From positions 1 through 32,274 of the forward strand of contig JYFJ02004426.1 of NCBI GenBank assembly GCA_000934665.2: a stretch of 32,274 nt of DNA, written 5' to 3'. The stretch is from Catajapyx aquilonaris. Taxonomy: Eukaryota. The notes beneath the pieces are model-generated. The model saw only the letters and a list, made by a program, of their open reading frames with translations, ran no database searches and was not told the origin of the DNA. Each line of letters starts with the position of its first letter. Within the stretch, counting starts at the first letter, position 1. The translations under genes were made by a program, and so were the position numbers. This document shows positions 2,800 to 30,100 of this stretch, piece after piece.

Positions 2800-3033
2800 T
2801 TATTCAAACAGGCGAATGATTGCGTCCCTCACGTTTGTACCACCCTGGGGAACATTGCTTGGGGGTGGGGTCACATCGGGGTCCTCGAAATCAACCATGA
2901 CACCTTGTCGACGCAACTGATCAATGAATTCCGTGAGCTCCACGTCTTCAGGTGGTTCCTCTTCCCCCAAAATGGATGCTAGGTTGTGCAGAACCGCAGC
3001 AGCAGCAACCACAGGGGGAATCCTCTTCAGTTT
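2800..3033 (-). mobile_element. PIF/Harbinger (HARBI1-like) transposase C-terminal fragment
   Basis: Translation KLKRIPPVVAAAAVLHNLASILGEEEPPED...GGTNVRDAIIRLFE* matches the Harbinger C-terminal pattern (IxACxVLHN, acidic stretch, GxxVRxxLI). The catalytic region upstream is absent. Confidence 0.8.
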
Positions 3034-3346
3034 AATTAATTTGGAAATTATTCGTATTTCCATCTGAATTCCATAGATCGATTTCATCCCGAAATTTGGT
3101 ACATTTTGAAATGAAAACAAGCAATTTCAAGTACATTTTGTTAACATCTTACTTAACTCTGTTAGAGGTAAGGATGTGATAAACCACAAGTTAATTTAAT
3201 TCATGTAGGGTTATTGCCAATCAAAGTCAATTGAATCCCATTCATCAATTTGGAATTACGTCCGAATTAATTCAAATCCGAATTGATTTCTGCCTTTAAG
3301 CATTTATCGAAAATACAAAACATGATGTGCCATTTTCTACTTGTAG

Positions 3347-4720
3347 CCTTGTCGCTTCAGAGCTGTGGATCCAATAAAAAGATTACTGCGCTTGAAGGCT
3401 ACAAATTTCAACCCGAAAGACACCACTACTGTAGTGACCAACTACTATCATGTCGGCTCCTTGACGCCTGAGTCATACACAATGCTGAGCATGTTGGCGG
3501 TGAGAAAACTGCATGGATCACCTTTCTTCTTTGTTGCACTCATATTGTGCAGTAGTAATGCAAAGATGTAAGTTGTATTTTCAGATCCTTCTAAACTACG
3601 TGGAGTGTGCCAAAGTCCTCCGGACTGGATTTCACCAGGGCTTCTTGATTGAGGCCAGGAAAGTGAATCACCACAATGTCTACGGCTCGCTCCTCCTGAC
3701 CGTGGCGAGCAAAGCTTCATTGTTTTCAACAACATACTTTGACGATTATCTAGAATCTAGATGAATATCTGGAAGGTTCTGCCTCTTGCCTTGAACGTAT
3801 CCCAGACAATGTCGTTTATCAGGCCAACAAGGACGTGATAGATCGTGCACCCCCAATTATCACTTCTGCCCTACGAGCTGGCGCATCCCAGCATGCAGAT
3901 GTACGATTTATCATACTAAGTTCAGTAGTGAATTGAATGGTATTATTTCTCATTGTAATGTTCAATTTTTTACCAAGGAAAACGCCATGATGGGAGTAAC
4001 CGCTGAGGCCATTGTCAATTGGTCTAAAGAGTACTTTGTTAAGAAGTCCAGTATGAACTTCCGCAAAATCAGCATTCAGGTAAGACAACGTTGCTGTGCT
4101 TGATGATCCCTTTGCGCATCTATTGCTGTAATATTGCATTTATTCCCAAGATTGCTGGGAATCCTGAATCTCCAGTCTCAAATACCCAACCTCAACTGGC
4201 TGCAGGGCCAGGATCCAATGTTGATGCTCCTGGCACGTACAAAATTTTACGGTCTTGTTTGAAGCACCTTCCGGGATACCTGCAAACCCCTTCCAACTGC
4301 AGTGAGTTATTCACGTCTAGTAGCCTATAAGTAGAACCAAGAGCTAATATGTAGAACCACCTTAAATGAGATATCCTGACTTTGCAGTTTACTACAGGGA
4401 ACCTGATTAGCATGTGATCCAAACCAACAATATAAGATAGAATCAGGTGTTCCTTTTTTAGCCAGACTGCTTGGCCCTAGAACCACGTGTTCCTAACAGT
4501 AAGGCATTATGGTTGTAGTGCATAAATGGGTTACTTTTGTGATACATGCGTTTAGGCCTACTTCCTTGTTATCTACCTCTAAACCTGTAGACTATCTCCT
4601 AAAATTCATATTAAGTGAGTTCCGCAATTATTTAAGTGCTACTTTTCTTTGATTTCAGGCAAGCAGAAGTATGATACTGAGGCCAAATACGTCACCGAAA
4701 TTGTTCCGGAGATGGAGTAG
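3347..4720 (+). pseudogene. NRDC: Nardilysin-like (M16A/insulinase family) C-terminal exons with a frameshift; exons 3347-3499, 3585-3900, 3978-4079, 4151-4301, 4659-4720
   Basis: Canonical GT-AG introns with compatible phases once 7 bp are removed. Peptides NFNPKDTTTVVTNYYHVG, LRTGFHQGF, LLLTVASKASLFSTTYFDDYL and AIVNWSKEY...NFRKISIQ|IAGNP follow the order of nardilysin C-terminal motifs. Premature TGA at 3762-3764; AATAAA at 4805-4810. Confidence 0.75.
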
Positions 4721-6335
4721 TCCACATTAGAGGTGCCATCAGGTTGAGCTCAAGAATCATGGAAGTTGGCTTATTCATAAAGACCTATCATCCGTGCCTT
4801 CAGCAATAAAAATATCAATCAACAGTTCAAAATGCAGAGATCCCTATGATGTACAGCACCAATATGCTATAAAATTAACCTAGTTATCATCTACCAACAG
4901 GTTTTGACACTAACTGGACTGCATATTGCTGTGCCAGCAGCATGATATAGTGGTTATAGTCTATTTACTTTGGGTAACCTAAATATTTCTCACAAATCAC
5001 AACATGGTTTCTGTGAAGCTTTTTGGTTACTCTGACAAGAGAAAAAGTAATTTTCTAATAACAAGAAGTGGAAAAAATAAACTTCAGAAATGGTGACATC
5101 AGAATAATTATATTGTTCCCCCCTGAGAAAAAAAAAAACTGTAAAAAAAATAGAGAGACTGCTGACCTTGACTTCCTGATTCCACCATGGAGGGATAACC
5201 TCAAACCTCGTCAACATAATTATCCTACTCCAAAATTTGCTGATGGAGCAAAACGGATGCCAGTTTTGGAATCAGCGCCACAGATCTACCCTAAAATCAA
5301 TCTAACCTTCAAGGCAACAAAATGTGTGTTGACCAGTGTTATGGTTCAAAAGAAAGCATCTCACACTAGTGACAGTACTATGGAAAAAATGGCAGCAGGA
5401 TAGGAACAACGGGCTGCTTTGTCCAAATACTCGTATGCCAAGTGACAAAGTCACAATTTTTATTGCATATACAAGAAACCAACAAATGAAGAAAAACAAT
5501 GTCGAGTTGTGCAGACATCTCCCAACTAGAATGTGGGCATCATTGTGTATGACTTTACTCCAGACAATTCTACCTGCATCACTCTCCGTGCTACCCTCAA
5601 GATGAGCAGGAACCAAAAAGCAAGGTTTCAAAACCATTACAGCACCTTTTCTTTAACGTAAATAAAACCAAATGTGCTTACTCAATGCAACAAAGCATGT
5701 CCTTCCCACTCTCACACAGGACCCTCCCTTGCATAACCTGGCTTTCCTATGTCAAACTGTTTCCTTCCTTCCTGCATTATTCGAAAAACCCGCACTTAGA
5801 GCAGCTGCTTCACATCTGTCTTCTTGGAACCAGGTGCTTTCAAACATGCAGCACCCAGTGTGTATGGTTAAGAGTCACCATTCGGGATATTTTTATTGGG
5901 TAGGTTACAAGGTCAGCAGGTATTCATAACAATGGAAGCATCAGGTAGCAAAGAGGTTTAGCTACAGAGGGTGGGAACCAAACAAATCAATGGCTCGGAA
6001 TCTATACTAGGCTAGCAGAGTGCAGTAAGGGAGGTCAAGAGTGCACAAAATAATTAACAATAGTAGAGGCACAAAATAATGCCAAAATTCAAAAAAAAAA
6101 AGGAAAGGGAAGCATGTCAAGTTTTTCTTTGCATCTCCTTCCGTATATGAAAAATAAGTTCAGAGTGAGGACAAGCTGAGAAGGCAATGAGAACCACAGG
6201 ATATGAATTGGGGAGAAGGCGCAAAGGGAGGGGAACACTATTGTAGTATACGTACAGCGTAAGTCCTGCGGGTGCACAGAAGGTGATGGGATGGCTGGCT
6301 GGTTCACTTGAATCCCAATCAAATGGCGTTGGGCA

Positions 6336-6495
6336 TTAAAAGGTGCTTCCTTCAGGTGGCTGTGACAACTTAATGTTCTCCTTGACTGTCATTAGTCGGC
6401 GGAGCTCTTGGAGCACGGTTTTCATGATGTGGTCTCGCTGCCACCTGGCCAGCAATATGGGAACACACTCAACACAGTACATGGGTTCGGGGTTT
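6336..6495 (-). CDS. UBE2V: Terminal exon resembling the C-terminus of ubiquitin-conjugating enzyme E2 variant (UBE2V/Uev1A/MMS2)
   Basis: Translates to NPEPMYCVECVPILLARWQRDHIMKTVLQELRRLMTVKENIKLSQPPEGSTF*, matching the UEV tail LAxW...IKxxLQELRRLMxxKENxKLxQPPEG. Not in the ORF track; TACAG acceptor ends at 6496. Confidence 0.88.
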
Positions 6496-9400
6496 CTGTA
6501 ATTGGTACCGTGCATATGTGAAGAGTGTCATCCCCTTAGGGAAAGCAGTCATAAAAGTCGCTAGCTTATAAACATGATTTCAGACCATAATGCTAAAAAC
6601 AAACTTCAGACTAGGTTACTCCTGCAGGCCCCTATGCCATGGGGTAAATGTGCCCTCCACCTTCCTCCCCTCGTAGCCCAGGATGCAGTGAACCTGCTCA
6701 TGATTTTCGCTCATCTTCACCACCTGAGCACGGACCATCATACCTTCCATCCAGGTGACCCCCTGTTTTAGATCACACCTGGCCCCGTGCCCCGGTAACC
6801 TCCTGAACTCCACAGGCATTTCAGCTACCTCTGCTCCATTCATCACCTTCTCTTTGCAAGTATCAATCACCAGAACGTCCATCAACTCCCCATCCACTTT
6901 CAGGATATACACACGCTCCCAGAAATCTTCTTCTGGTAGCTTTGCAAGCATGATGGTCATCGGTAATGGCTTGCATCGCGGTAAGTTGTGCTTAACTGCA
7001 TCCAGATCTGCCATGTTTTGAAAGACATCCATAGAAGATATAACACTTGCAAGGAAGGCCTCAGTGGTAAGGGCTCTTGTGATAATGACCCTCAGCCGTT
7101 GCCCAGGTGTCACCTGACACAGACTGCTTATTCCCAATCCTTGGAAATGAGACAAGCATTGGTCCATCTCCGTGTGCTGTGAAAAGGGGTGAGCAGAACG
7201 GTTGGATTCGGGATCAGATGCACACCCTTCCTCAGAGTCCTTCATGCCCTTTCCATCTAAGCTCGGCAAGAAGCCTGCAGCATCATTATGCTGGAAATAA
7301 AAATTAAAAGGCAATGTGATGATGTTTGTGACCATTTCACACTGAATTATCTGAGTGTTCTGAAGCATCATTTGACGATTCATAGTGTGATCAATCCATA
7401 ATAAACTCTTACTTTAAAAAAGCAAACAGCCAGTGATTAAGTTCAAACATGTAGCTCAGACAAGATGGGTGTAAAATGCCAAATGAAAGGCTTGCTTATT
7501 CCAGCTGACAACAAAGCAGAAATGCAAATTAATGTTTATCTAAATTGCTGCATTAGGATGGCCATTATTAGGTTGATCAGTGGATAGTGTGTTGCAACTG
7601 ACATCTGCCAGCTTCACATTTGCCTCCTAGCCATGAGAACATACCAGCTTTGCAGAAGCACGAGTGCATGACCCATCACTCGGCATGTGGGAGGCCACTT
7701 CATCATCCCCTCCTGGTGGTTCCTTCCTATCTTGCTTTTCTGCATAAGAGAAGTCAAATCTGTACTTTCACATACCTTACCCAAAAGAATGGATAGTCCT
7801 TGGATCACATAAAAACTACACAATGCAATATTATTTCTTGTAAGCTACCAGTATCTTAAGTCAATGACCATGATGGCCAATGTGAGGGGAAGGTCTAATT
7901 CTTTGGTGATGACATTTCTGTAAGGGCCTTACAGAAATGTCATCACCAAAGAACCAAAGCCTTACAGTAAGGCAGTGCTATAGTATAGAAAAAGTTCACA
8001 ACTACACTGCTGTCCCACCTAGAAAAGGCACATATCTGCACTTTGCAACAAGTTCCTTTGGGCCTTTTGGGTACGAATTCCTCACAGCAAACTTTAAAGT
8101 GGGTTCAGAAGAGTAGGCATCCACATTTCCATCAATGTGAATATGAGTTAACATCTAAACACATGGGACCCCAGTAACTTAAATTTTTTATAATGCACAG
8201 AACAAAAATTTACCAAGGTGCCACAAGATATATTGCTCACATACCAAAATTAAGAAGAAAAAAACACTATTATATTTCCACTGTTGTCATGATTCTCAAG
8301 TGTCTTATGAAATATGGCAAAAGTCATGATTTGTGGTTTATGTTGGTCCCAGGATCTTTCAGTGAGTGGCCCAAATATTTGGAAATAGTTATTGCCTGCC
8401 AAGTACATCGTGAACCAGTGGGTATGGACTTAAAACTGCCAATATATGCCACTTATTAATCAAAATAATTAAGGAAAATGTACCAGTCCTAAAGAAAAAA
8501 TGAGAGCCTTGTCTCACCTTGTTGAACAGTCCCAGTGTCAGCCAGGCATCCAACCTGCTCTCTGCCATCTGAGGGTATAAACTCCTGAAAAGAAAATGTG
8601 TTTTCAATCTCGTTATTGTTGCACTCACCTCATGTTCACCCTAAGCATGCTAATCCAGAAACACTCGGCCTCTAAAAATGATAAATTTGATATTCAATAT
8701 TCCTTTATTTACCCAAGACTTGGCCATTGAAACTTACAGGAAGCACACCAAAAATATTGTGGGTTAGTCTGCTGAATAGGACAAGGTAACTGGGCATTAT
8801 GAGATCTTAACTCAAAAAGTAGGATGGATACTGGTGTTTAATAGCACATTATTTTAAATGAGCTAAGTAGAATGGTATTGTATTGTTACTAAACATCAAG
8901 AGATATTTTAAAAAGTTTCAGTGATGTATTCATCAACAGTACACCAAGGAAATATCAGTTTTTATAACACTACCAATCCCACTTGCCCTATCCAATTTGG
9001 CTGATTTATTTTCTGAGTGATGCATGCTGGTGTAATGATATACCGGTACTGCACTTCTTTCACTAGCCTAACTCTGATTCTTGCTTGTCAGAATCTCCAT
9101 TTGATGGACTGTGGCATACTGAGGAGCATAATCTTTTCCCATTAGACTAAATAGAGATCAGAATACCTGGAAAAACTCAGATTCTTAATGCATCCAACCT
9201 GATGCAACTGGCAATAATTAATTAAGCAGTTCAAATAATCATTTTTACAGAAAGGTATTGTCCTAATAATGGCAATCTTTAAGTGATATTCCCTGGAAGG
9301 GCTGGTCATGCATAATTATACACCTGGTACACCATGGTGTTAGTGGAAACTTGCCAGAATGATGCCACCTTCCAAACTGCCTTCATTGCATCCCTTGACT

Positions 9401-10533
9401 ATACTGATATAGCAAAGTACAGTGCACTTGAAAAACCATGGTAAAATGCTAATGCAGTACACTAAGACCCTAGTCTGGCTATGCTGGGCAGCATACCCAT
9501 GCATCTTGTGTATCTTTCTTGGATGTCTCTTTGATGAATGTATAAAAGTTTTGTCAACCCATAGTAATAGCAAGAGGTAATAGTTATATTGTGAATACCC
9601 TAATTTCATCTGTTAACCCCGCTCTCGCCTTTGTGCCGTCATTATAATTATAATTATTATTTATTTTTTTACGTTACCCCGTGCTAGGGCCATAGGCCCT
9701 TATAGGGGGGTGGAATACCACCATTTTTCCTTCAATTTTCTGATTTTTTCTTCTAACTCCGGTGCAAGGATGAAAGGACATGAGGTAAGGATATAGGAAT
9801 TTTTGGGGAGGGAACATTGGGGCAAGTGCAATGTCGGTAAAGGGGTCATGTGCTGTTCCCCAGGAGGTTAGGTTGCCAGACACCTCCTTGGTGCAGGTCA
9901 GAGACCCTCCTGACGCAGGTGAAAGGAAAGTTCCCCAGGCGGGGATCGAACCTGGGGCCTTTCACTCAGCAAGCCGAGACGTTACCATCACGGCCACCAC
10001 ACCTCCCCCATTATAATTATTTGCAACATCATATAGGACAGGATGCAGGTCAAGTGCCAAAACATCCTGTCATTAAAAGCCGGCAAGGAAATTCCCAACT
10101 TGAAGCAAATCTCACCTTCTGACTGAATGGTACCTTCAAAATTACAAACCATCTATATTTTTGTGGTTGGATGCTATGCTAAATGCCATATAACGTTAAC
10201 GGGGAGGCGGAGTGGTACTGCGGTAACGTATGCCCCCACGGATGTTAAGGTCCCGGGTTCGATCCCAACCCGGGGACAACCCCTTCATCTCGTGCAGAGT
10301 TCAGGGTCACCTCTGGCTTCGTCTCGGGTGGTATTTCCCCAGACTAAACCACCCGGGGGAGTTCACTAAAAATGGCCACGTTTAAGACATTGCACTGCAC
10401 CTTGCACATCCCCTCCTGTCATCCTGCCCGTGGGCCCGGGCGTTACGTATAAAGGTTCCAATAAATTATGTACGAGACATAAATAAAGGTCCGTAAGTGC
10501 TATATACCTCCGATGAGGTCAAGTACTACCCGG

Positions 10534-10583
<50 letters not shown>

Positions 10584-11106
10584 ACGTCAATAGTGGTAGT
10601 TTTTCCCATCTAGAATGGACATTGACATCATTGTTTCTGCAGCATTCACATTTCTTTCTTTCAAGACCCAGAGTATTCCGTATTTGTGGGTTCCTGTCAC
10701 CTGAGGATACAAAGGTAATGTCATCCAATGCTATGTAGAATTTGGGAACATAGGACCCAACCTGGCAACAGTATGCATGTAAAAACCCATGACCATACTC
10801 CATCTCTTCGCTTTTACCTTCTCAGCAGCATAGTTACCATTCCCAAGCAGCAGTTTCCCCTCACTTAAACTAGAATCACTATGCTATTACTAGTATTACA
10901 TGCATTTCACCTTTCACTTGAAAGAAAATGAGCTATCCTATTGTCCAGCACCCTTTCATATGCATCATGTCACGTTCAAATACAAACGAGTAATAAGTTA
11001 GTGGTCTCACCTCCTCCATGAAGCCCCAGCCTGGCATGGAGCTGGACCTGACGCGGACCTCGTCAGACTCCTTTTGTATCATTGGCTTGGCAAATGGATT
11101 GCCCAT
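6336..11106 (-). CDS. Multi-exon chimeric gene: PP2C-like N-terminus, extended Tudor domain, UBE2V-like C-terminus; proposed exons 11106-11011, 10761-10701, 8671-8629, 8584-8518, 8154-8019, 7739-7645, 7290-6620, 6495-6336 (442 aa if all used)
   Basis: All eight exons have GT-AG boundaries and successive phases match, giving a 1329-nt stop-free ORF. The last five exons are well supported. Linkage of the first exons, the 44-bp intron (8585-8628) and possible extra exons at 9000-9550 are less certain. Confidence 0.6.
6620..7290 (-). CDS. Exon encoding an extended Tudor (eTudor) domain
   Basis: MLAKLPEEDFWERVYILKVDGELMDVLVIDTCKEKV...AEMPVEFRRLPGHGARCDL parallels the eTudor pattern CxAxFxxDxxWYRAxI...VxFVDYGNxE...LPxxFxxLPxQAxxCxL. 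TTTCCAG acceptor and GTAACC donor. Confidence 0.8.
7899..7953. repeat. Perfect 55-bp palindrome (27-bp arms, 1-nt centre) in an intron
   Basis: TTCTTTGGTGATGACATTTCTGTAAGG-G-CCTTACAGAAATGTCATCACCAAAGAA, followed by a smaller palindrome GCCTTAC-A-GTAAGGC at 7959-7973. Confidence 0.95.
9652..10008 (-). mobile_element. tRNA-derived SINE
   Basis: Minus-strand head with A box TGGCCGTGATGG and B box GGTTCGATCC, internal GACATTGCAC, 3' end AGCACGGGGTAAC plus A-rich tail, and TSD CATTATAATTAT at 9640-9651 and 10009-10020. Confidence 0.9.
10201..10578 (+). mobile_element. tRNA-derived SINE with (ATT)n tail
   Basis: A box TGGTACTGCGG, B box GGTTCGATCC, internal GACATTGCAC, (ATT)n tail from ~10534, and TSD ATATAACGT(T/C)AA at 10188-10199 and 10579-10590. 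Confidence 0.9.
11011..11106 (-). CDS. First coding exon resembling a PP2C/PPM phosphatase N-terminus
   Basis: MGNPFAKPMIQKESDEVRVRSSSMPGWGFMEE resembles the PP2C start MGxxLSxPxxxKES...GSSxMQGWRxxMED; ends at a GTGAGA donor in phase 0. Confidence 0.5.
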
Positions 11107-11802
11107 GGTTGATGGTTGGTGAGGAGGCAATCAGCAGGGCCAAACGGGTAGGGGCGGAAGCGAATAAACAATTAAGGCAGGTGGACAACAATTGAATGAG
11201 TCAAGCTTCGTATTCCGGCTAATAGAACACAGCCACCATCTTGGAATGTTCGACGGGAGGGGGGGGGGGGGGGCNGGGGGCACGGGTGCCAGATGGAAAT
11301 TTTCCCTCGCTCTCCTTCTCCCCTCACCTGGGCATGCACCTGGGCCACCTGGGCAATGGGTGTTGTGTTGGGCAGTTAGATGCTGAACCTGGCAACAAGT
11401 GAGGCCATCTCTGAGAGAGCCATGATGGAGCTCCTTCCTAACCGATTGGCTGACATATCAGCTCAAACTAATGTGTAACATAAGTAATGTTTAATGTCCA
11501 GATTTTTTTTCTCCTTCACCCGCACACCTCAGGGCATATAATTATATGAAAGATACAGGGTGACCGAAAATACTTGTCATCTTCTTGGCATCCACGGGGA
11601 TCACGTGGGCCGTGACGTGAGGATCATAATACACACAAAAAAAAAACATCGGACTGTCAAGGAGCGCCGAGAAGCTTGGGCTTTGTTAACGGCGTCTTTG
11701 TTCAATTATTATTAGTGTCACTTCCCTGTAAACGTGTTTCTCTTTCTTTTTCTTTTACTTTACAGCTGGGAGGAACCTGCCGTAAGGGTAAGTGGACATA
11801 TG

Positions 11803-12487
11803 AGGGAGGCGTGGAAGTCTAGTGGTTACGCCACAGACTAGCCAAGCAGGAGGCCGGGGTTCAAATCCCGTCCCCGTCACCTCTGCTTGGCCGGGTCTTT
11901 TTCCGCTTTTCACCCGACACGCCGGGGCAGCATTGCACTCCCTTAGCGGCCCGGGGCCAGAGAAAAGGTCTGGTGTATCTGAGAGAGTCGTGAGCACGGC
12001 TGTAGAAGACTCAGGTTAGGTCACTCCCCACCCACCCCCTGCCGAAGGATTACGCACCGGGTGGCCACTTGAGATCGCTACGAGACATTTCCCAAGGCTA
12101 TCATGTGGCGACCCTACCGGACTAAGGCTGAACTTTACAGGTACGAAGGGGAGGGCTACATGCTGGCCCAACATGGCCGCCAGCGGCCATGTTGGGCCCC
12201 CCAATGTAGCCCCCCCCCTTTCGTACCGGTAAAGTTCAGCCTTAGTCCGGTAGGGTCGCCACATGATAGCCTTGGGAAATGTCTCGTAGCGATCTCAAGT
12301 GGCCACCCGGTGCGTAATCCCTCGGCAGCTGATAACGCCAGAACGTAAGTATAAGTGTCCGTGGGCTGGTCGTGAGTGACTATAAACCGTGGATGCCCTT
12401 GGGAACCTTTCCCCTCCCCACAAAACGAGCCGCAATGGCTCGAGCACGGGGTAACAATAAAAAATATTAAAAAAATAAGATATAAAA
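11803..12487 (+). mobile_element. tRNA-derived SINE carrying an internal 290-bp palindrome
   Basis: B box GGTTCAAATCC, 3' end AGCACGGGGTAAC plus A-rich tail, exact 13-bp TSD AAGTGGACATATG at 11790-11802 and 12488-12500. Related to the 29036-29317 copy. Confidence 0.92.
12039..12328. repeat. Near-perfect 290-bp foldback palindrome (~140-bp arms)
   Basis: CTGCCGAAGGATTACGCACC...CATGGCCGC-CA-GCGGCCATG...GGTGCGTAATCCCTCGGCAG; explains the mirror-image ORFs in the ORF track. Confidence 0.95.
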
Positions 12488-12850: not shown

Positions 12851-13352
12851 GGAGCAGTGCAGAAAGGGCAGACCACAAATTGCAATAATTCAGTCAATAT
12901 CACTTTAGCCATTATTTGGTTTTGGCATTAGGTGGCATTATTACATAAATAGCAGTCTACTTAATCAGAAAAAAATATGAAATAGTGCAAGATTTTGTTG
13001 ATTACTGAGTGATTAGTGGATGTTATTCATTGATAATTGAAGGGGTCGGTGCAATACTGCCCTAACCCTCCCAAACCTGATTTTGAGAAAACCGAAGTTG
13101 AAAGTTTGAGATGACCCATAAATCACATTTTCCATAGGACAATTTTCATATCTCCCCCAATGTACAAGGCACTAATAAGGGATATTTATGTGCTATTATG
13201 ATGATGATGATGCACCACCCGCTCTAAGAATGAACAAAATAAGGTGGCCACGTGTGAAAAAAAGGGTTAGGGCAGTATTGCACCCAAGTTGTAATGCGAA
13301 CTAAATTTTGGTCAAGAACGTATCACAAGCTTCACTAGTTAGTTTAGTGATC

Positions 13353-13970
13353 ATATAAATTATATCAAATGAACTGTCGTGAGATGAGGAAACATTTTGG
13401 TGGCATCGGGTATAACCTAGATTGTAAAATAAAAATGCTAAAAAATTCGCATTATTGTTCAAAACGGACACATTTCATATGGTCCAATGTCATTGCTAAA
13501 CACATGCTAAGCGTGTGGAATTAATATGGTAGGTATACATTGTCATCTGATCATTACTATACTGTCGAAGGACAACATCACAGGTCAAGCAGTCTTGGAA
13601 ATAAAACTTCTGAAATGTCTGTTTTCCACTAATTTGGTCATCTTCGAGGTAATTTTTTCTCAATGTAGGGCTGGGTTGAAGTTACCAAATAACGTAGCCT
13701 ATAGAGGGCTTTTCCGGACATTTCATGATTTATTGTGTCCAAGTCTGATTGACCTTGATGTTGCCCTACAATAGTAATGAGCAGATGACAATGTACCTAC
13801 CACATTAATTCCACACAATTAGCATCTGTTTAACAATGACATTGGACCATATGAAATGTGTCCGTTTTGCACAATAATGCGATTTTTTAGCATTTTGATT
13901 TTACAATCTAGGTTAAACATGTTGCCACAAAATGTTCCTCATCTCACAACAGTTCATTTGATATAATATG
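13353..13970. repeat. Long imperfect inverted repeat (arms ~13353-13621 and ~13714-13970) inside the Sola-like element
   Basis: For example AAAACGGACACATTTCATATGGTCCAATGTCATTG pairs with CAATGACATTGGACCATATGAAATGTGTCCGTTTT, and ATATCAAATGAACTGT pairs with ACAGTTCATTTGATAT. Confidence 0.9.
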
Positions 13971-14309
13971 AACATGAGGGTACAATAATAACTTCACCTG
14001 AAATAAATGGACCTTCGAATCCGTCTCCATTGTTTCTGAAAGACGTTGCCATATCTCCGTGGGATTTTCACCTGGGAGGCTCTTAACTTTATTTTTGGCA
14101 ACACTTCAATGATTTTTATATATCAAATTATGAGATGGTCGAGCCACCAACTTGTCTATCTTGACATGGAATGACTCAACTATTATTATTATTTTGCTGC
14201 AATTGACTACTACTTTGCACAGCATCATTATCAGGATCGAACTCTGAATCGTAGGTACAGTAGTACTCTCATCCACATCGGTGTCATCAGGCAAAAGCTC
14301 ACTATTTAA

Positions 14310-14781
14310 CCCTTAACTACGTAGGTGGGTGAAACACCTTTAACTACGTAGGTGGAGCCTGAGAGGCTCCAACGGTATATTTAAATTTCTGCTTATCAAC
14401 TAAATTGTTATATTGGACTTTTCACATACAGAAAGTGCAGTTCAGATCATTAGGCTTCCGAAAACGTAAAAATCACACTCTGAGTCAGCATATTCCGACA
14501 GGGAAAAATTGCTAATTAAAAGGTTACATCATGTGTTTGAGCCGCTCAGGCTTCACCTGAGTTATAGAGCCTGAGCGGTTCCAGGAGCGACCTGTTCCTC
14601 ATTACGAATTTTTTAAAACCAAAGAATAGGGACTAAAAAATTTTTTCTTTCCTTTCCATGCTTAGGAAGGTTTTTCTGACAAAGTCACGGAAGGACAGGG
14701 GAAAATAAAATTCAATGAAAAAGTTACATGCGTTTAAATAGTGCTTGGAGCCTCTCAGGCTCCACCTACGTATAGTTAAGG
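14310..14781. mobile_element. piggyBac-like MITE nested in the Sola-like element
   Basis: TTAA|CCCTTAACTACGTAGGTGG start; ACGTAGGTGGAGCCTGAGAGGCTCCAA is mirrored by TTGGAGCCTCTCAGGCTCCACCTACGT near the right end. The right TTAA is not preserved. Confidence 0.65.
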
Positions 14782-15073
14782 CCCGACTCGTGAGACACAG
14801 CAGCTCGCAGCTGCAACCTACGCGCTGCCATATTTGCAGATGGAGGGTTAGGGCGGTTTTGCTACAGAAAAGCCATTCATAACTTTGCAGCAAGAAAAAC
14901 ATTGCTTGATTTCTCGCCAACAAATGACAGAAACTGGACAATCTCAGTGTACTTTATTAGATATTTGAGTGTAGTATATGGAAGTGCGCGAAACTCAATA
15001 TATTTGTGTCATTTGGTGGGTTAGGGCAGTATTGCACCGACCCCCTTCAATTGTTTACCAGGACCAACACACC

Positions 15074-15283
15074 ATGATGTCAGCAGTTTCTGTCAAGATA
15101 GAGGTGGAAGAAGAAGGTGAAATGCCTGTCACGACTGAAGAGGAAGAGGATTTGGCGTCATGGAAAGCAGCATTATCCAGCTTGATTGCTGATAACGCCA
15201 GTGCTACTGGAGATGTGCATCCGGATATAAAAGAGGAGCCGAAGGAGGATGAAGAGATTGCAGTCGGACCCAGTCAAGTACCA
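15074..15283 (+). CDS. Orphan acidic coding exon with VKIE and IKEE motifs, typical of nuclear/zinc-finger protein N-termini
   Basis: Acceptor TTTACCAG ending at 15061, ACCATG at 15074, MMSAVSVKIEVEEEGE...DIKEEPKEDEEIAVGPSQVP, donor GTATGT at 15284. No downstream exon identified. Confidence 0.55.
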
Positions 15284-15324
15284 GTATGTGCTGCTTTCAA
15301 TGATTGTTATACCTGAGTATGAAA

Positions 15325-15402
15325 TCGTCGGGTGAGAATTACATGGTTGTAACTGCAATGAAAATCCTGTGTAGTTACAACCTTGTAATTCTCACCCAAC
15401 GA
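15325..15402. repeat. Short hairpin / mini-MITE
   Basis: TCGTCGGGTGAGAATTACATGGTTGTAACTGCA is mirrored by TGTAGTTACAACCTTGTAATTCTCACCCAACGA. Confidence 0.8.
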
Positions 15403-15603
15403 AATTATGTCCTTTATTGATATCATCCCAATAACTTTTCAATGCAATCCTCCCTGACATTCACACACCTTTTCCACCTCATCTCAAATGACTTTATGCC
15501 ATCATTAAAAAGTATTTTCTGTTGCGTGCCAAATCGCCCTTCCACTATACTTCCTGGAATTCGTCATTGCTGAAAAATCGATGGCAATGAAGGGATTTTT
15601 GAA

Positions 15604-15795
15604 GGCCCCTGCCACACTAGACGGAATTTCCGCGACGGAATTTCCGTCGCATCCCACTCAAATAATCAAACTCATAAGTAAACGGGATTCCGTCGGGGCC
15701 GATTTTTTCCGCCGTGTCTTCGGCTGGTGCTCGACGGAAGAACAGAAAATCCGTCGTGGGTGTCACATCCCGACGGAATCCCGTTTTCTGTCGGT
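15604..15795. mobile_element. Harbinger-like MITE left end with GACGGAATTTCC-type subterminal repeats
   Basis: Starts GGCCCCTGCCACACTAGACGG and has repeated GACGGAAT/TTCCGTC motifs in both orientations; no right TIR found. Confidence 0.45.
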
Positions 15796-15914
15796 CGTTT
15801 GTGACAGTCAAGAAATTACTTGGTAGACATAAGAAAGGGAGAAAAAAAAGAAAGACACGAAAAAGACGAAAGAAAAGGGGGAATGGGAAGAAGAAGAAAA
15901 ACGAAACTGGAAAC

Positions 15915-15975
15915 GGCTCTCCGACCAGGGTCGAACCTACGACCCTTTGATCTTCTATGACCGTGCTCTAATCTG
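15915..15975 (-). other. Degenerate tRNA-like sequence / SINE head
   Basis: Minus strand TTAGAGCACGG...GGTCGTAGGTTCGACCCTG has a B box but no complete cloverleaf. Confidence 0.4.
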
Positions 15976-16242
15976 TAAACAGCAGTGTTACCAACTGGGT
16001 CATTGACTTGTTTGGAACGTTACAATTAGCGCTCTACCGTATCTCCGTCGCCGTGGTTACGGGCCCACATTTATTAAATTGCTAATTACTCGAAAATGCA
16101 TGAGCATATGAGACGGTTGTGATTTTCACATATTCATACCTGGCCTACAATTGACCAGCCATGTAATTTTGGGTCCGATCGGTGACATGTTGGTGCGTAA
16201 GTTGTACTGAGCACGGTGAAACGTAACTGGCCCTGAGGGAGG

Positions 16243-19562: not shown

Positions 19563-22500
19563 ATGGCCTTACAATCAATGAGACGTACCTTCGTCACCAA
19601 CCTCAAGACTGGGGTGTATGAGGCAAAGCTACTGCCAACAGTAGAGGTATGCTTATTAGCAATAATATTGGCCGGTTCACCTTTACGTGACCAAATAAGC
19701 AATGGGTGGGACGGAACTCCAGGTCAAAATCCCGCCATGGTACGCTTTGACAGTACAAGTCTAAAATGTAGATGTAGGGGTGAGAAATAACTGGTACCTA
19801 CATAGACGACGATCGACGAGCCCTGACTAGTTGCAGGATGAGTCAGAACTCCCGGTCAATTGGCCGCCAGTGTAGCCTACTTCTTGGTCCAAAACTAAAC
19901 TATGAAAAATAATCATGGCCGATAAATATCGAGACATCAACCAGACGTCGACAATAACGGACGTTTTGGTGACTCTTATTATGTTAGATTGTCAAGTGAA
20001 ATATTGTGAAAACTATTTTGAGCAGAACTACTTGGCGTCCCCGATAGTTCTTTGTAGGCTTACAGCACAAAGCCAGCATGTGTAAGCTACATAAAAACTA
20101 ACTCTGAATGTAATGATTGAGATATTTTGTAAAATAAAATCACTCCATTGCATTGGACTGGTTACAGGCATGGTTAAGAGGCTCCGAGGAAGAAATGCCT
20201 TTTGACTTATCACTACTAGACGCCCTCAGCAGACAGGTGCTAACCAATGCGAACATGATGGAGTCATCTACTTTGGCAAAACTGGCGCACATGTGTCTTG
20301 ACAGGATCTTCAGAACCCAGAGGAAGGACGTGCTCACATATATCATGCCATGCATTCAGTACCGAATTACGAAGATCGTCGCCTACCTGCAAGCCAAGGC
20401 AAGTCATAATATTTATACTGTACTCTCCATAACTGATCAACTTTATTATCTTGTAAAGCGTAAATGTTCCATTTTTGAAGAAAGATGATCAATGTGGCAA
20501 TTATTAAATAAATTGCAATCACAAGGAAAACAAAAATATTCAGGAATATAACTACTCTTCTACTGTATATGAAACGGAAATCACACTCTGCATGATTAAT
20601 TTTTTTTTACAAAATTATCCCATACCATTTCAGGATGAAAGTTACCTGGCATGCTGCGTAGGGAGCAACCTGGTTCGTGTGATCTATTTCGAAAATGCAT
20701 GGTTGAAAGAGCCAATGATTTCCATCACTCAGGAAGCAATTTCCATACTCTGCAAAGCCTACTCACATGCCACTTTGAACACCCCAATCGGGAATACTGC
20801 AAACCAATTCATGGACCAAACACCTGATCTCATCTTCCAAATGTGCAGGTCTACACTAATTCTGCACTGCAACTATGCGTGGAGCGACCGAATACCTTGG
20901 TTTACTATTGTTGATGACATCATAAAAGCATGTGGAAGGCGTACATTGGAACGTTATTCTTTTCACATTCTCAATGCCCTGGTGCGACATGCTCTTGACA
21001 TCGGCAAAAGACTTGTCCAAGGAGGCAGTTTTATCTCACGGGACTTGTCCATGTGGCTAGAGGTGGCCATTCCAAGATGGATTGGCACGATGTTTCGGGT
21101 TTGTCCGATCCAGGAACCTGACCTTCTGAATTCGTTACAAAATACCATCCAATCGAGAGTGTCGCCCTTGTACTCGGCAATACTGGCATGTGGGATAGAA
21201 ACCTGTCGTATGGAGTTACAGTGCATCATCATATTCGATGCAATCTCTTTCTACAGAATGTTCAACCTCTTTTCCCTTAAACAAATGCTCAATGCAAATC
21301 CGTTGGTGTGGAAGAATCCTCAGTACAATTCGCCTACAGTGGCAGTTGTTCAGAGCATCATGGAACATATGCTGGATAATGATCATGCAGCTCCGCTTAT
21401 GCAAGTCAATGGTGCTACCAAAAGACTGTTGCTCATGATGTCACGCGCCTTGGTCCTGCTGAGCCCTGCTGAGCCTGCCTGCAACGATTCGTCCAAACTG
21501 GAAGAAATTGAATGGCAGGTCCAAACTTCGAAGTCAATATTGGAAGTGATTCTCAGAGAGACAAATGCAGAACACGTGCCATGGGAGAGTGCGGCCCTTG
21601 CTCTCCTGTCGGCCTTCTCTCGGATCGTGTGGTGGTTGAACACAATTAAGCCGCATACTGATAAGCATGTGAAATTGTGTAAACTGATGAGTAAGTAGAG
21701 GACATAATCTTTTTGGAATAAAATATTATTCTGACTTTGTAACTTTGTGGCTGGCAGCATCAGTTTAACCTCACAGATTTGGTCGGCTTGTTGGTTTGTT
21801 CATTGGGGTCAAGCGATCTGGCCCCGAAGGGCCTCATAGGATATCCATCGCACAATAGTAATCATAACCAAGCTATGAGAGATCAAGGAAAGGAGGGAGT
21901 AGTCAGCCACAAAGTTACTCACTCCAGTCTATGTGAACATGACCATGGCAAAAATGTTCTTTGCAGTCGAGCTTGTGCGGCCAGTGTGTATCGTTGCCAG
22001 TCAGAGAGGCCTTGCTCGAGAAGAAAAGGATTTGCAAGAACTATGGACTAACTGTTCTGACATGATCGCCAGCCAACAACCCCAGCAACAATCCCAGCAA
22101 CAACCACAGGTAACACTTCATTCCTAATAGCTTTACTTCAGTCTATTGCATTCAAATAATATTAGGACAGGTAAATCCAAGTTGAAAATTCATTTTACAT
22201 AAGGACCCAAAGCGAGTGACTGGGACTGAGTGGGAAATAAGTATCGGTACTCGTACTATCATCAGGCATGTATAATAATATATTAATCACTAATCAGGTA
22301 TCAGGTAACTAATCTCTATCGAATCCACATGCTGCTGAAGCTGCTAACATGCCTTGAACTCCCCACAGTGACCAAGAAAAAGTGTATCCAACTGTATACT
22401 GTCTTGTATATAGTCTGCATCAGAAATCATCAGCAGTACATGATATACTAACTATAGAAACTGAACCTTGTTGTAAGAATAGAGCTACAGAACTCTAAGT

Positions 22501-23666
22501 AGAATTACAGTAAAATATAACATGCAGGAGTGAATTTCACAATAATTAAAAAGAAACAATTGTGCCAGTAGTCCAAGCCTACCCAATGGCTCTCATTGAC
22601 GGCCTGCTCTAGAGCTAAAGTATATGCTGTGTCATTTTGGTTGCCACAAAAAGCAGGCTCTGATTGTCTGACTTCACACTCTGGTCAATTTCTGGGGATC
22701 ATTTTCACCGACGCGACGGTGATCTTGGGAGGTGAGAATATTGTCTCATGAATTAGCAGGCGTGTGACAGTGAGGTTTTTTAACTGGTGTATGCAGCAAT
22801 AATGGCACAACCTTGACGTTTTGACACCAACTGGCCAAAAAGGTATGTCAGTACCAGCAAAGTAATTCTGCTCATCTTGCAGGACTCACACATCTCCCAC
22901 GCTTCCTTTCACTCGATCAACTGGACACCAGATGTTATGGCATTACTCAAAGAGTTTGTGGACACTGAAACAGCCAAGAAAACACGTCAGAAAGCAACTC
23001 GACTGGTGAAACCTCCCCTTGACACGGAAACATCTAAGAAAACACGCCAGCAAGCAACTCGACTGGTGAAACCTCCCCTTGACACGGAAACATCTAAGAA
23101 AACACGCCAGCAAGCACCTCTACTGGTGAAACATACCCTTGACGCTGTCCAGGCACATGAAACTGTAGCCATAGCAAGGACATCCAGAAACATGGTAAAA
23201 GAAGTTGACATAGATTGTACTCTTTGTGTTGGCTTTTATACCCACTTGTGTCGTAAGATTTTCAGAACTTGCGCATGAAAATTTGTTATTGCCGCTGCAT
23301 GTTTTTATGCTTCTAAGACCATGTTATTTCATGCAGGAGGATGTAGAGTGTGGGGTGAAGAAGGTAGCAGATGTTTCCAACGAACACCCTTCCACACCAA
23401 CACCTGTCACTGCTCTTGCCCCGACTGCAGCGGCCATTCCTCGGGTTCGGAGGAATACAGTGATCAATGTTAATCCTGTACTTCACGATATTCTTCCTGA
23501 GTCCTATCGCCGAATGTACCAACTAACACGTTGTAAGAGAAGCCCGCCTCAAAACAATCAGAGGGAGGCACAAGCATTATCTACCCACATGTGTGTCCCA
23601 AGCCATGCAGTCCCACGAAATCCAAAATCCCGCAAGGTTGCTGACAAGGGACACAATCGAAATTAA
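19563..23666 (+). pseudogene. Six-exon uncharacterised, probably alpha-helical protein gene with a disrupted exon 4; exons 19563-19646, 20168-20398, 20634-21690, 21777-22109, 22883-23194, 23337-23666
   Basis: Phase-compatible splice sites including an AAG|GCAAGT GC donor at 20399, a 1057-bp open exon 3, and AATAAA at 23812-23817. Exon 4 needs a frameshift near 21839 and read-through of TGA (21876) and TAG (21900) to reach its donor in the frame exon 5 requires. No family recognised. Confidence 0.65.
22961..23143 (+). repeat. Coding minisatellite, 3 x 60 bp (DTETSKKTRQQATRLVKPPL)
   Basis: Units start at 22961, 23021 and 23081 and preserve the reading frame. Confidence 0.95.
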
Positions 23667-29317: not shown

Positions 29318-29542
29318 AAATAAGTAAATATTATCACACCCGAAGGTAGGCTGCATTAAATTCCTAACTCCCTTTTAGCTTTAGGACTAAGGGCTTATGC
29401 ACACAGGTCAACCGGAAACTGGTAATCTTCTGTGTACATAAGCCCTGACTAATTGACATGCAAGATACCAATGGTGAAATCTTGCCTTTCCTACCAACCT
29501 CAGACATATAAGGTAATTTTGATCTTCTATGCAGGTGGCGCA

Positions 29543-30100
29543 ATGGCCCAGTACTCCGGGGGAAAGGAGTCAGGAGCAGAAGAGGCACAAGCATTGGTGG
29601 AGAATGAAGAAATTGAGGACAATGGTGAAAATTTGGATCCTAGAGATATCCATGGAGCTGCCTGGTTGGGTGACAATGAAGCGGTCACCAGATTTTTGGA
29701 CGATGGAACAGATGTGGACAAGCGGAATATTGACTCATACACCGCACTCCATTTCGCCGCCTTTCAAGGTCACCAATCAACATGCAGGCTTTTGATCGAG
29801 AGGGGAGCAGGAGTAAAGATTCAAACCGTTAGTGGAGACGCTGCAATTCACTTCGCTGCTAAGCAAGGTCACTTGGAGGTTGTTGCCCTCCTCCTTGGGT
29901 CAGGAGCAAACATATCCGACACTGGAGAAAATGGTCAGATGCCTCTTCACTACGCACTGCGTGAGCATCATTTGGATATGGCTCGCCATCTCGTCTCTTC
30001 AATGTCAGCTGATGCAACAGCCATGGACGGGTTTGGAGTACGTGCCATCCATCTGACGAACGAGACGCTGGTAGAAGAAGTGAGTGCACAAGTCATATGA
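29543..30100 (+). CDS. Ankyrin-repeat protein (about four repeats); probably a first coding exon spliced at 30079
   Basis: Repeats IHGAAWLGDNEAVTRFLDDGTDVD, TALHFAAFQGHQSTCRLLIERGA, AAIHFAAKQGHLEVVALLLGSGANI and MPLHYALREHHLDMARHLV. Acceptor TATGCAG ends at 29534, ATG at 29543, GTGAGT donor at 30080, otherwise TGA at 30098-30100. Confidence 0.9.
   Translation: MAQYSGGKESGAEEAQALVENEEIEDNGENLDPRDIHGAAWLGDNEAVTRFLDDGTDVDKRNIDSYTALHFAAFQGHQSTCRLLIERGAGVKIQTVSGDAAIHFAAKQGHLEVVALLLGSGANISDTGENGQMPLHYALREHHLDMARHLVSSMSADATAMDGFGVRAIHLTNETLVEEVSAQVI

Follow-up and report, generated by a model that had tools for sequence, protein, structure and literature searches.

Chimeric genes formed by partial DNA duplication or exon shuffling are well described, as excerpts of reports on Drosophila yakuba (PMC5460883) and rice (PMC3673630) illustrate. 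Here, we analysed a locus on the minus strand of one entire 32-kb contig of Catajapyx aquilonaris (C2427; JYFJ02004426.1, 32,274 nucleotides (nt), hereafter the window) from an assembly of 285.6 Mb in 20,583 contigs, in which DNA from a PP2C phosphatase gene, a Tudor-domain gene and a UBE2V gene stands in one row. According to the same excerpts (PMC5460883, PMC3673630), the Drosophila and rice chimeras likewise join the 5' regulatory end of one gene to the 3' exons of another with introns kept, and some of the new rice genes (PMC3673630) also draw on more than one parent. Unlike those chimeras, which the excerpts present as RNA-supported, the window locus is known from DNA alone and has three donors, the third of which would give only untranslated sequence.

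The first donor resembles PPM1G-type PP2C phosphatases (closest structure 2i0o; PPM1A and PPM1B weaker), with which the locus shares a promoter, exon 1, a phase-0 intron 1 and an N-terminal Gly pattern. Unlike them, the window lacks both the PF00481 domain and the metal-binding aspartates, and in the exon-1 motif the conserved Gln and Arg are altered, so that the predicted product could not be a phosphatase. Ppm1g and Ppm1b are among the myristate-probe-labelled Xenopus proteins in an extract of PMC10994533. The second donor belongs with scaffolds of the PIWI-interacting RNA (piRNA) pathway (Tudor, TDRD1, Krimper eTud1, Vreteno-type RRM plus Tudor), sharing the extended-Tudor fold and, in the parent cluster, several Tudor domains plus a weak RRM match. 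Unlike these scaffolds, the predicted window protein is single-domain, lacks cage residues and an RRM, and has no MYND domain that we could see; it is set beside the named TDRDs by fold, not orthology. Methylarginine-independent binding by Tudor domains is documented for the Krimper upstream domain in a passage of PMC10711660. The third donor recalls Kua-UEV (TMEM189-UBE2V1; PMC6862657), in which UBE2V sequence also forms the 3' part of a hybrid transcript and which the extract of that paper describes as a read-through of intact neighbours keeping UEV from exon 2 on. In contrast, the window holds a DNA copy of the last ~40 codons only, with the acceptor missing, placed after the stop codon. 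A literature search, with coverage that lacks most subscription papers, found no PP2C-Tudor fusion.

Three donor genes in one mosaic

All three donor families were located on contigs other than the window (labels such as C638, C1214, C1463, C2803, C3876 and C5513 denote other contigs of the same assembly). Nucleotide searches against these contigs bore out the three-donor composition that the original prediction had proposed. The DNA mosaic is real: 11798-8721 is PP2C sequence, 8721-6477 Tudor-gene sequence and 6466-5339 UBE2V sequence, and parts from at least two parent loci lie in one colinear open frame. A nucleotide search of the assembly turned up the fused form only once. The PP2C and Tudor pieces keep their introns, and the UBE2V piece has no poly(A) tail and runs ~120 nt beyond its distal AATAAA, which indicates copying at the DNA level and makes a UBE2V retrocopy unlikely. 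The gene content of the window is animal-like, and the nearest Atlas clusters of the Tudor domain are most often arthropod. Judged from the sequence, the locus is most likely a DNA-level chimera of a known type, consisting of a PP2C promoter and start, Tudor exons and a UBE2V 3' end, whose expression is only predicted.

A promoter and first exon from a PP2C paralog

Nucleotide homology to PP2C genes spans 11798 to 8721 and takes in the promoter, exon 1 and most of intron 1:

11107..11798, minus strand: promoter and 5' untranslated region (UTR), copied from a PPM1G-like PP2C paralog (blastn to C3876, C6161 and C9430)
11011..11106, minus strand: exon 1, a copy of PP2C exon 1; 96 nt encoding 32 amino acids (aa), with a 15-nt in-frame deletion and a phase-0 GT donor at 7/9 consensus
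8722..11010, minus strand: the greater part of PP2C intron 1, into which two interspersed repeats were later inserted, at about 9640-10021 and 10195-10590

We take the family to be PPM1G-like from its sequence and a large insert. The sequence of exon 1 given in the original prediction stands, and the PP2C likeness that it had judged by eye is now established through the paralogs. The exon 1 protein is 63% and 58% identical to exon 1 of C5513 and C3876, both of which have PF00481 exons downstream; exon 1 of C3876 matches the PP2C structure 2i0o (E 2.4e-5), as does exon 2 of the relative C638 (E 4e-17). The window exon is thus homologous to the PP2C N terminus, a relation proven through the paralogs because this exon alone gave no PDB match at E<=10 and no Pfam match. 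Alignment to the PP2C 5' region of the host genome gave 81-83% nucleotide identity over 11011-11260 and 11011-11500, supporting a promoter and start borrowed from a PP2C gene. The promoter block diverges by 10-12% (substitutions) from C6161 and C3876, and the alignment shows that it keeps a motif which we assume to be CCAAT-box-like and an AAGATGG motif, both common across the paralogs.

As predicted, no catalytic PP2C part follows: the homology ends within intron 1, before PP2C exon 2, and none of the 40 PF00481 matches scored in the genome lies on the window contig. The donor is not the single housekeeping gene that had been assumed; it is one member of an expanded, diverging paralog family. 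At least eight related PP2C 5' ends could be aligned, C5513 being closest over the intron, and the parent genes splice exon 1 at phase 0.

Members of this expanded PPM1G-like family were seen on C5513, C3876, C6161, C5281, C638, C4220, C8017, C5424, C5410, C2745 and C1319. C638 and C4220 look nearest to the canonical PP2C form; several other copies are fragments or lack a start codon, the latter at the aligned position in C5410, C2745 and C1319. The exon-1 Arg is lost in both C5513 and the window. Upstream of the promoter, 15049-15604 (plus strand) keeps its colinearity with both C3876 and C6161; in the window only, repeat insertions of ~2 kb lie between this stretch and the promoter. It includes an acidic 113-aa open frame (14975-15316) that faces away from the PP2C start and has no significant Pfam match.

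Exons from the 3' end of a Tudor gene

The block 8721-6477 corresponds to C1463:167381-170695, where a gene in a multi-Tudor cluster with a weak RRM match has its 3' end. An open path runs through five exons of this parent (A-E, with boundaries drawn from DNA only) with intron phases 0, 1, 0 and 0. Exons B, C and E form exons 2 to 4 of the four-exon model discussed below:

8518..8584, minus strand: exon 2, parent exon B; phase 0 to 1, linker, with indels in multiples of 3
7645..7739, minus strand: exon 3, parent exon C; phase 1 to 0, linker
7425..7516, minus strand: site of the missing parent exon D; the 246-nt phase 0-0 exon is gone, a frame-neutral loss, and a 64-nt piece matching C2407 is present
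6616..7290, minus strand: exon 4, parent last exon E; ~52-aa linker, one extended Tudor domain and the parent's own TAA at 6618-6616
6477..6615, minus strand: leftover Tudor-gene 3' sequence, with ~880 nt of the parent absent between 6604 and 6575

The Tudor domain that had been proposed is genuine (Pfam TUDOR E 7.7e-8, extended-Tudor fold), and the Tudor exon had no match at E<=0.001 among 91 library candidates of 123-392 aa. Over 418 columns, the Tudor piece of the window diverges by 6.5% from C2803, 7.2% from C3876 and 9.6% from C1463. No AATAAA or ATTAAA occurs in the 1.8 kb after the stop codon of the Tudor parent.

Broken copies of the Tudor segment (exons A-B) with nearly equal end points lie at C3876:16444-17717 and C2803:24405-25703. 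The Tudor/RRM cluster on C1463 also has internal duplications at ~90% identity (147500-153258 against 161595-164315), indicating that the parent Tudor locus has itself been rearranged.

A 3' end from UBE2V

The last block and the repeat beside it read as follows:

5339..6466, minus strand: UBE2V last-exon fragment and 3' UTR; coding remnant 6466-6336, AATAAA at 5897 and 5464, 93% identical to C1214:42357-43487
5228..5342, strand not assigned: multi-copy repeat adjoining the end of the UBE2V homology; elsewhere it forms inverted pairs (terminal-inverted-repeat-like), with no partner in the window

The last coding piece is indeed a UBE2V C terminus, with an E value of 1.3e-11 to UBE2V2 chains and 87% aa identity to the genome's own UBE2V. 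It covers only residues ~100-138 of UBE2V2, not the whole UBC-like fold of about 140 aa, and nucleotide comparison found no upstream UBE2V exon in the window. The copy starts ~14 nt inside the parental exon and so lacks the natural acceptor. The nonsynonymous divergence (dN) of the remnant is 0.063 against a divergence of 0.038 in the UTR, and three of its changes fall at residues where the parent agrees with human UBE2V2; at the sequence level, its amino-acid changes show no constraint.

Two AATAAA signals come from UBE2V and none follows the Tudor parent's stop, which makes a borrowed terminator plausible and a UEV tail not. The UBE2V part is accordingly placed most likely as 3' UTR and terminator of the predicted chimera. 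The original prediction had a Tudor module bracketed by the first exon of one gene and the last exon of another, with a borrowed start and terminator; the 3' end with its poly(A) signals at 5897 and 5464 holds, and the UEV tail as a translated exon does not. Stop-codon read-through into UEV was rejected, as the frames differ and stops intervene.

Four exons or eight

A gene model of four exons (11106-11011, 8584-8518, 7739-7645 and 7290-6616) gives 933 nt and 310 aa without an internal stop. It uses inherited splice sites only, with compatible phases, and since PP2C exon 1 ends in phase 0, a direct splice to exon B is possible. Splice sites were scored by consensus counts, not a species-specific matrix, with ~15 anchored sites at hand. 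When only strong sites were admitted (donor at least 7/9, at least 9/11 pyrimidines), four open chains led to exon E: one direct, one through a 51-nt cassette (10700-10650), one through B and C, and one through all three. Two of the four contain exactly B and C of the parent. All nine candidate 112-nt second exons were closed.

The original prediction had instead claimed eight GT-AG exons joined in phase over 1329 nt. It gave no exon coordinates; we reconstructed a chain that agrees with its position 10701 (11106-11011, 10761-10701, 8671-8629, 8584-8518, 8154-8019, 7739-7645, 7341-6620 and 6444-6336). Such a protein would have 442 aa, with a UEV C-terminal tail spliced from inside the Tudor stop codon and translated. 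The chain does exist, is open and totals 1329 nt; two of its donors reach 7/9 (10700) and 8/9 (8628), the UBE2V remnant is stop-free with a single insertion of 3 nt, and 10761-10701 agrees with C5513 in all but 1 of 61 bases. However, in-phase joining is no more than chance would give. Admitting splice sites no better than the weakest of this chain, we counted 1.2e9 open chains with six middle exons from exon 1 to the UEV frame, against 3e6 to 3e9 in 10 Markov-regenerated controls; with ~10^9 such chains and similar controls, the eight-exon open frame carries no weight. Moreover, three of the eight exons are parental intron and exon B is read in a shifted frame. The segment 10761-10701 belongs to the PP2C intron, and including its homolog would put the PP2C gene out of frame; for 8671-8629, the homolog is not open in the phase that the parent offers; that of 8154-8019 is closed in all three phases in the parent, and this segment has no Pfam match and no genomic match other than that closed parental intron. 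The Tudor frame in the window stops at the same TAA as in the parent. The donor of the UEV join at 6619 scores 4/9 and is unchanged from the parent, where the sequence is the stop context, and the acceptor at 6444 (6/11 pyrimidines) falls inside a parental coding exon because the copy begins ~14 nt after the real UBE2V acceptor. The 36-aa tail would be an unconstrained fragment of a ~145-aa fold, and the eight-exon route is not among the four strong-site chains. We regard translation of the eight-exon protein as very unlikely.

The four-exon PP2C-leader/Tudor gene with a UBE2V-derived 3' end is most likely the better model on these sequence features. In it, the PP2C promoter would drive transcription, the phase-0 donor of PP2C exon 1 would splice over the hybrid intron to the first inherited Tudor-gene acceptor, and translation would end at the native Tudor TAA, leaving to UBE2V only the 3' UTR and the poly(A) site.

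Intron 1 also contains 10761-10701 and the possible in-frame 51-nt cassette. The near-identity of 10761-10701 to C5513 and the wide retention of the CAG at 10701 make alternative splicing within the hybrid intron possible. Most PP2C paralogs retain this pyrimidine-rich CAG together with the GT after it. The cassette is open in the window and carries a stop in C5513; it is possibly an alternative or poison exon of the PP2C family.

Junctions and origin

Two junctions separate the three blocks:

8710..8735, minus strand: junction 1, where PP2C intron 1 meets the final ~10 nt of a Tudor-gene exon, close to 8721; the donor families have 11 of 12 nt in common
6467..6476, minus strand: junction 2, where the Tudor 3' region gives way to UBE2V; a filler of ~10 nt repeats the next hexamer

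A match of 11 of 12 was reached in 20 of 5000 random window pairs, and the filler at junction 2 suggests end joining. On C3876, a PP2C gene is preceded by a broken fragment of the Tudor gene that has the same orientation, and on C9430, Tudor-cluster DNA lies beside a PP2C promoter. The simplest origin suggested by this arrangement is a microhomology-guided rearrangement in a duplicated Tudor-plus-PP2C block, with junction 1 arising where Tudor DNA already preceded a PP2C copy, an order that C3876 retains. Joining of the UBE2V end would have been a separate event, perhaps a later one: the UBE2V divergence of 3.8% against 9-10% in the introns suggests a later capture, although a conserved parental UTR could give the same difference.

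Because the assembly is fragmented into many contigs, with many related paralog fragments and the window being one whole contig, an assembly error that joins real but separate paralog pieces has to be considered. Neither side of junction 1 has a near-identical counterpart among the best candidates scored, the best differing by 6-13%, which argues that misassembly is unlikely. Both junctions are clear of high-copy repeats and of Ns, and phases and splice sites fit across the junction. An assembly chimera is highly improbable on these grounds.

A terminal-inverted-repeat-like element adjoins the block at its 3' limit (5342) and a second repeat family occupies 15784-16197, which would suit a block carried as cargo by a Pack-type or Helitron-like transposon with three captured gene fragments. 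Nevertheless, these repeats bear no relation to each other, the block is flanked neither by an inverted partner nor by paired ends, and the fused form was found once only. The paired termini and multiple copies typical of a Pack-MULE or Helitron were not seen in the window or the assembly, Helitron hairpin ends having been inspected by eye only. We give transposon cargo hardly any credence.

A live gene or a decaying copy

Exonic indels relative to the paralogs are multiples of 3 in all eight cases over the four exons, against 14 of 43 in introns (Fisher p 5e-4). Three indels are window-specific by eye, namely 15 nt lost in exon 1 and 15 nt lost plus 3 gained in exon B, and the two repeat insertions and one exon loss left the frame intact. 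In neutral simulations, none of 3000 runs kept the frame open when half the pairwise divergence was applied; with a quarter, 2.4% did. We lean, with some caution, towards a live chimeric gene.

Several points weigh against this reading. Neutral frame survival rises to 24% if the fusion accounts for only a tenth of the divergence. The ratio of nonsynonymous to synonymous divergence (dN/dS) from the paralogs is 0.82 for exon E (Fisher p 0.46), 0.77 for B, C and E together and 1.22 for exon 1; it is 0.38 for exon C and above 1 for exon B. Some of the in-frame indels belong to the parent lineages, and the frame conservation seen in the sequence could predate the fusion, which cannot be dated from the compared paralogs since they are not the direct donors. 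The hybrid intron has decent cryptic sites (10761-10701, 8671-8629 and an inherited donor near 8710), so that other or frame-shifted products are possible. Finally, a plain tandem duplication does not explain the flanks, because Tudor DNA is missing from the upstream side of the promoter and a PP2C body from the downstream side.

The same mosaic could also be a dead or decaying by-product of a rearrangement-prone PP2C/Tudor hub, its frame held open by pre-fusion constraint on the separate halves and the fusion being recent. A dN/dS indistinguishable from 1, the survival of neutral frames after a young fusion and the absent Tudor cage would fit this, as would the broken sister fragments in C2803 and C3876 and the start codons missing from C5410, C2745 and C1319. 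On the other hand, the locus combines the promoter and a strong start context with a 3' end and the full set of six inherited splice sites, the window-specific indels are in frame, the cage is absent from the parent domain too, and fast evolution is common in Tudor/piRNA genes. Decay of this kind is a tentative possibility, on the unlikely side in our estimation.

Predicted protein

If the live four-exon gene is expressed, its protein would be a non-catalytic adaptor in which a 32-aa leader, possibly myristoylated, is followed by ~105 disordered residues and a single Tudor module. The N terminus fits MG-x-x-x-[A/S] in the window, C5513 and C3876, and C638 and C4220 also begin with Met-Gly and have Ser at position 6. 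Met-Gly with a small residue at position 6 is what we take to be the N-myristoylation pattern, and the leader is thus possibly myristoylated.

The Tudor part was predicted by AlphaFold with a predicted local distance difference test (pLDDT) of 86 and a predicted template modelling (pTM) score of 0.75, using a 9-sequence alignment. Foldseek gave 49 matches at E<=0.001, and those listed are all Tudor-domain or piRNA-complex entries. The modelled fold, a barrel inserted in an SN-like fold, is that of an extended Tudor domain, with a Foldseek E value of 1e-7 for 3nth and 5m9n, and its matches include the domains of Tudor, TDRD1, SND1 and Krimper. At the positions that presumably form the aromatic cage, comparison with Tudor-SN 2wac gave Leu, Glu, Val, Thr and Lys in place of four aromatics and Asn; the parent Tudor domain is likewise cage-less. 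The module would therefore probably be limited to methylarginine-independent contacts.

These features suggest a non-catalytic adaptor that takes its expression, and perhaps membrane targeting, from the PP2C start. It is more doubtful that the product is a lipid-anchored, cage-less extended-Tudor adaptor in which the PP2C exon gives a broad promoter and a myristoylation signal and UBE2V a housekeeping 3' end. A minor isoform might add the UEV C-terminal helix.

Other features of the window

Open frames of 116 and 396 aa at 20138-21698 (plus strand) have no Pfam match and are left unassigned, since the recognition score of their Atlas look-alikes, a mixture of helical-repeat families, is low. 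An ankyrin-repeat open frame of 215 aa lies at 29453-30100 (plus strand; Ank_2 E 8e-28). At 2800-3126 (minus strand), a 108-aa frame without a Pfam match presumably resembles a Harbinger transposase C terminus; next to it, 3304-4443 is 69% identical to C2803:12950-14054. Inverted-repeat transposon-like insertions occur at 12038-12328, 13035-15052, 15784-16197 and 22961-23143, together with a 60-nt tandem repeat within a 153-aa open frame.

Implications

The mechanism itself is well known, which limits the surprise. If expressed, the locus would be a compact, fully mapped new gene built from promoter, domain and terminator modules whose donors and breakpoints are still readable, and it would allow testing whether myristoylation of a borrowed first exon can send a Tudor domain to a new location. 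If the lipid-anchored adaptor were to hold true, a germline piRNA-type module would have been moved to membranes or new tissues, each donor supplying one working part. For the two families involved, the arrangement points to a local hub of PP2C and Tudor co-duplication.

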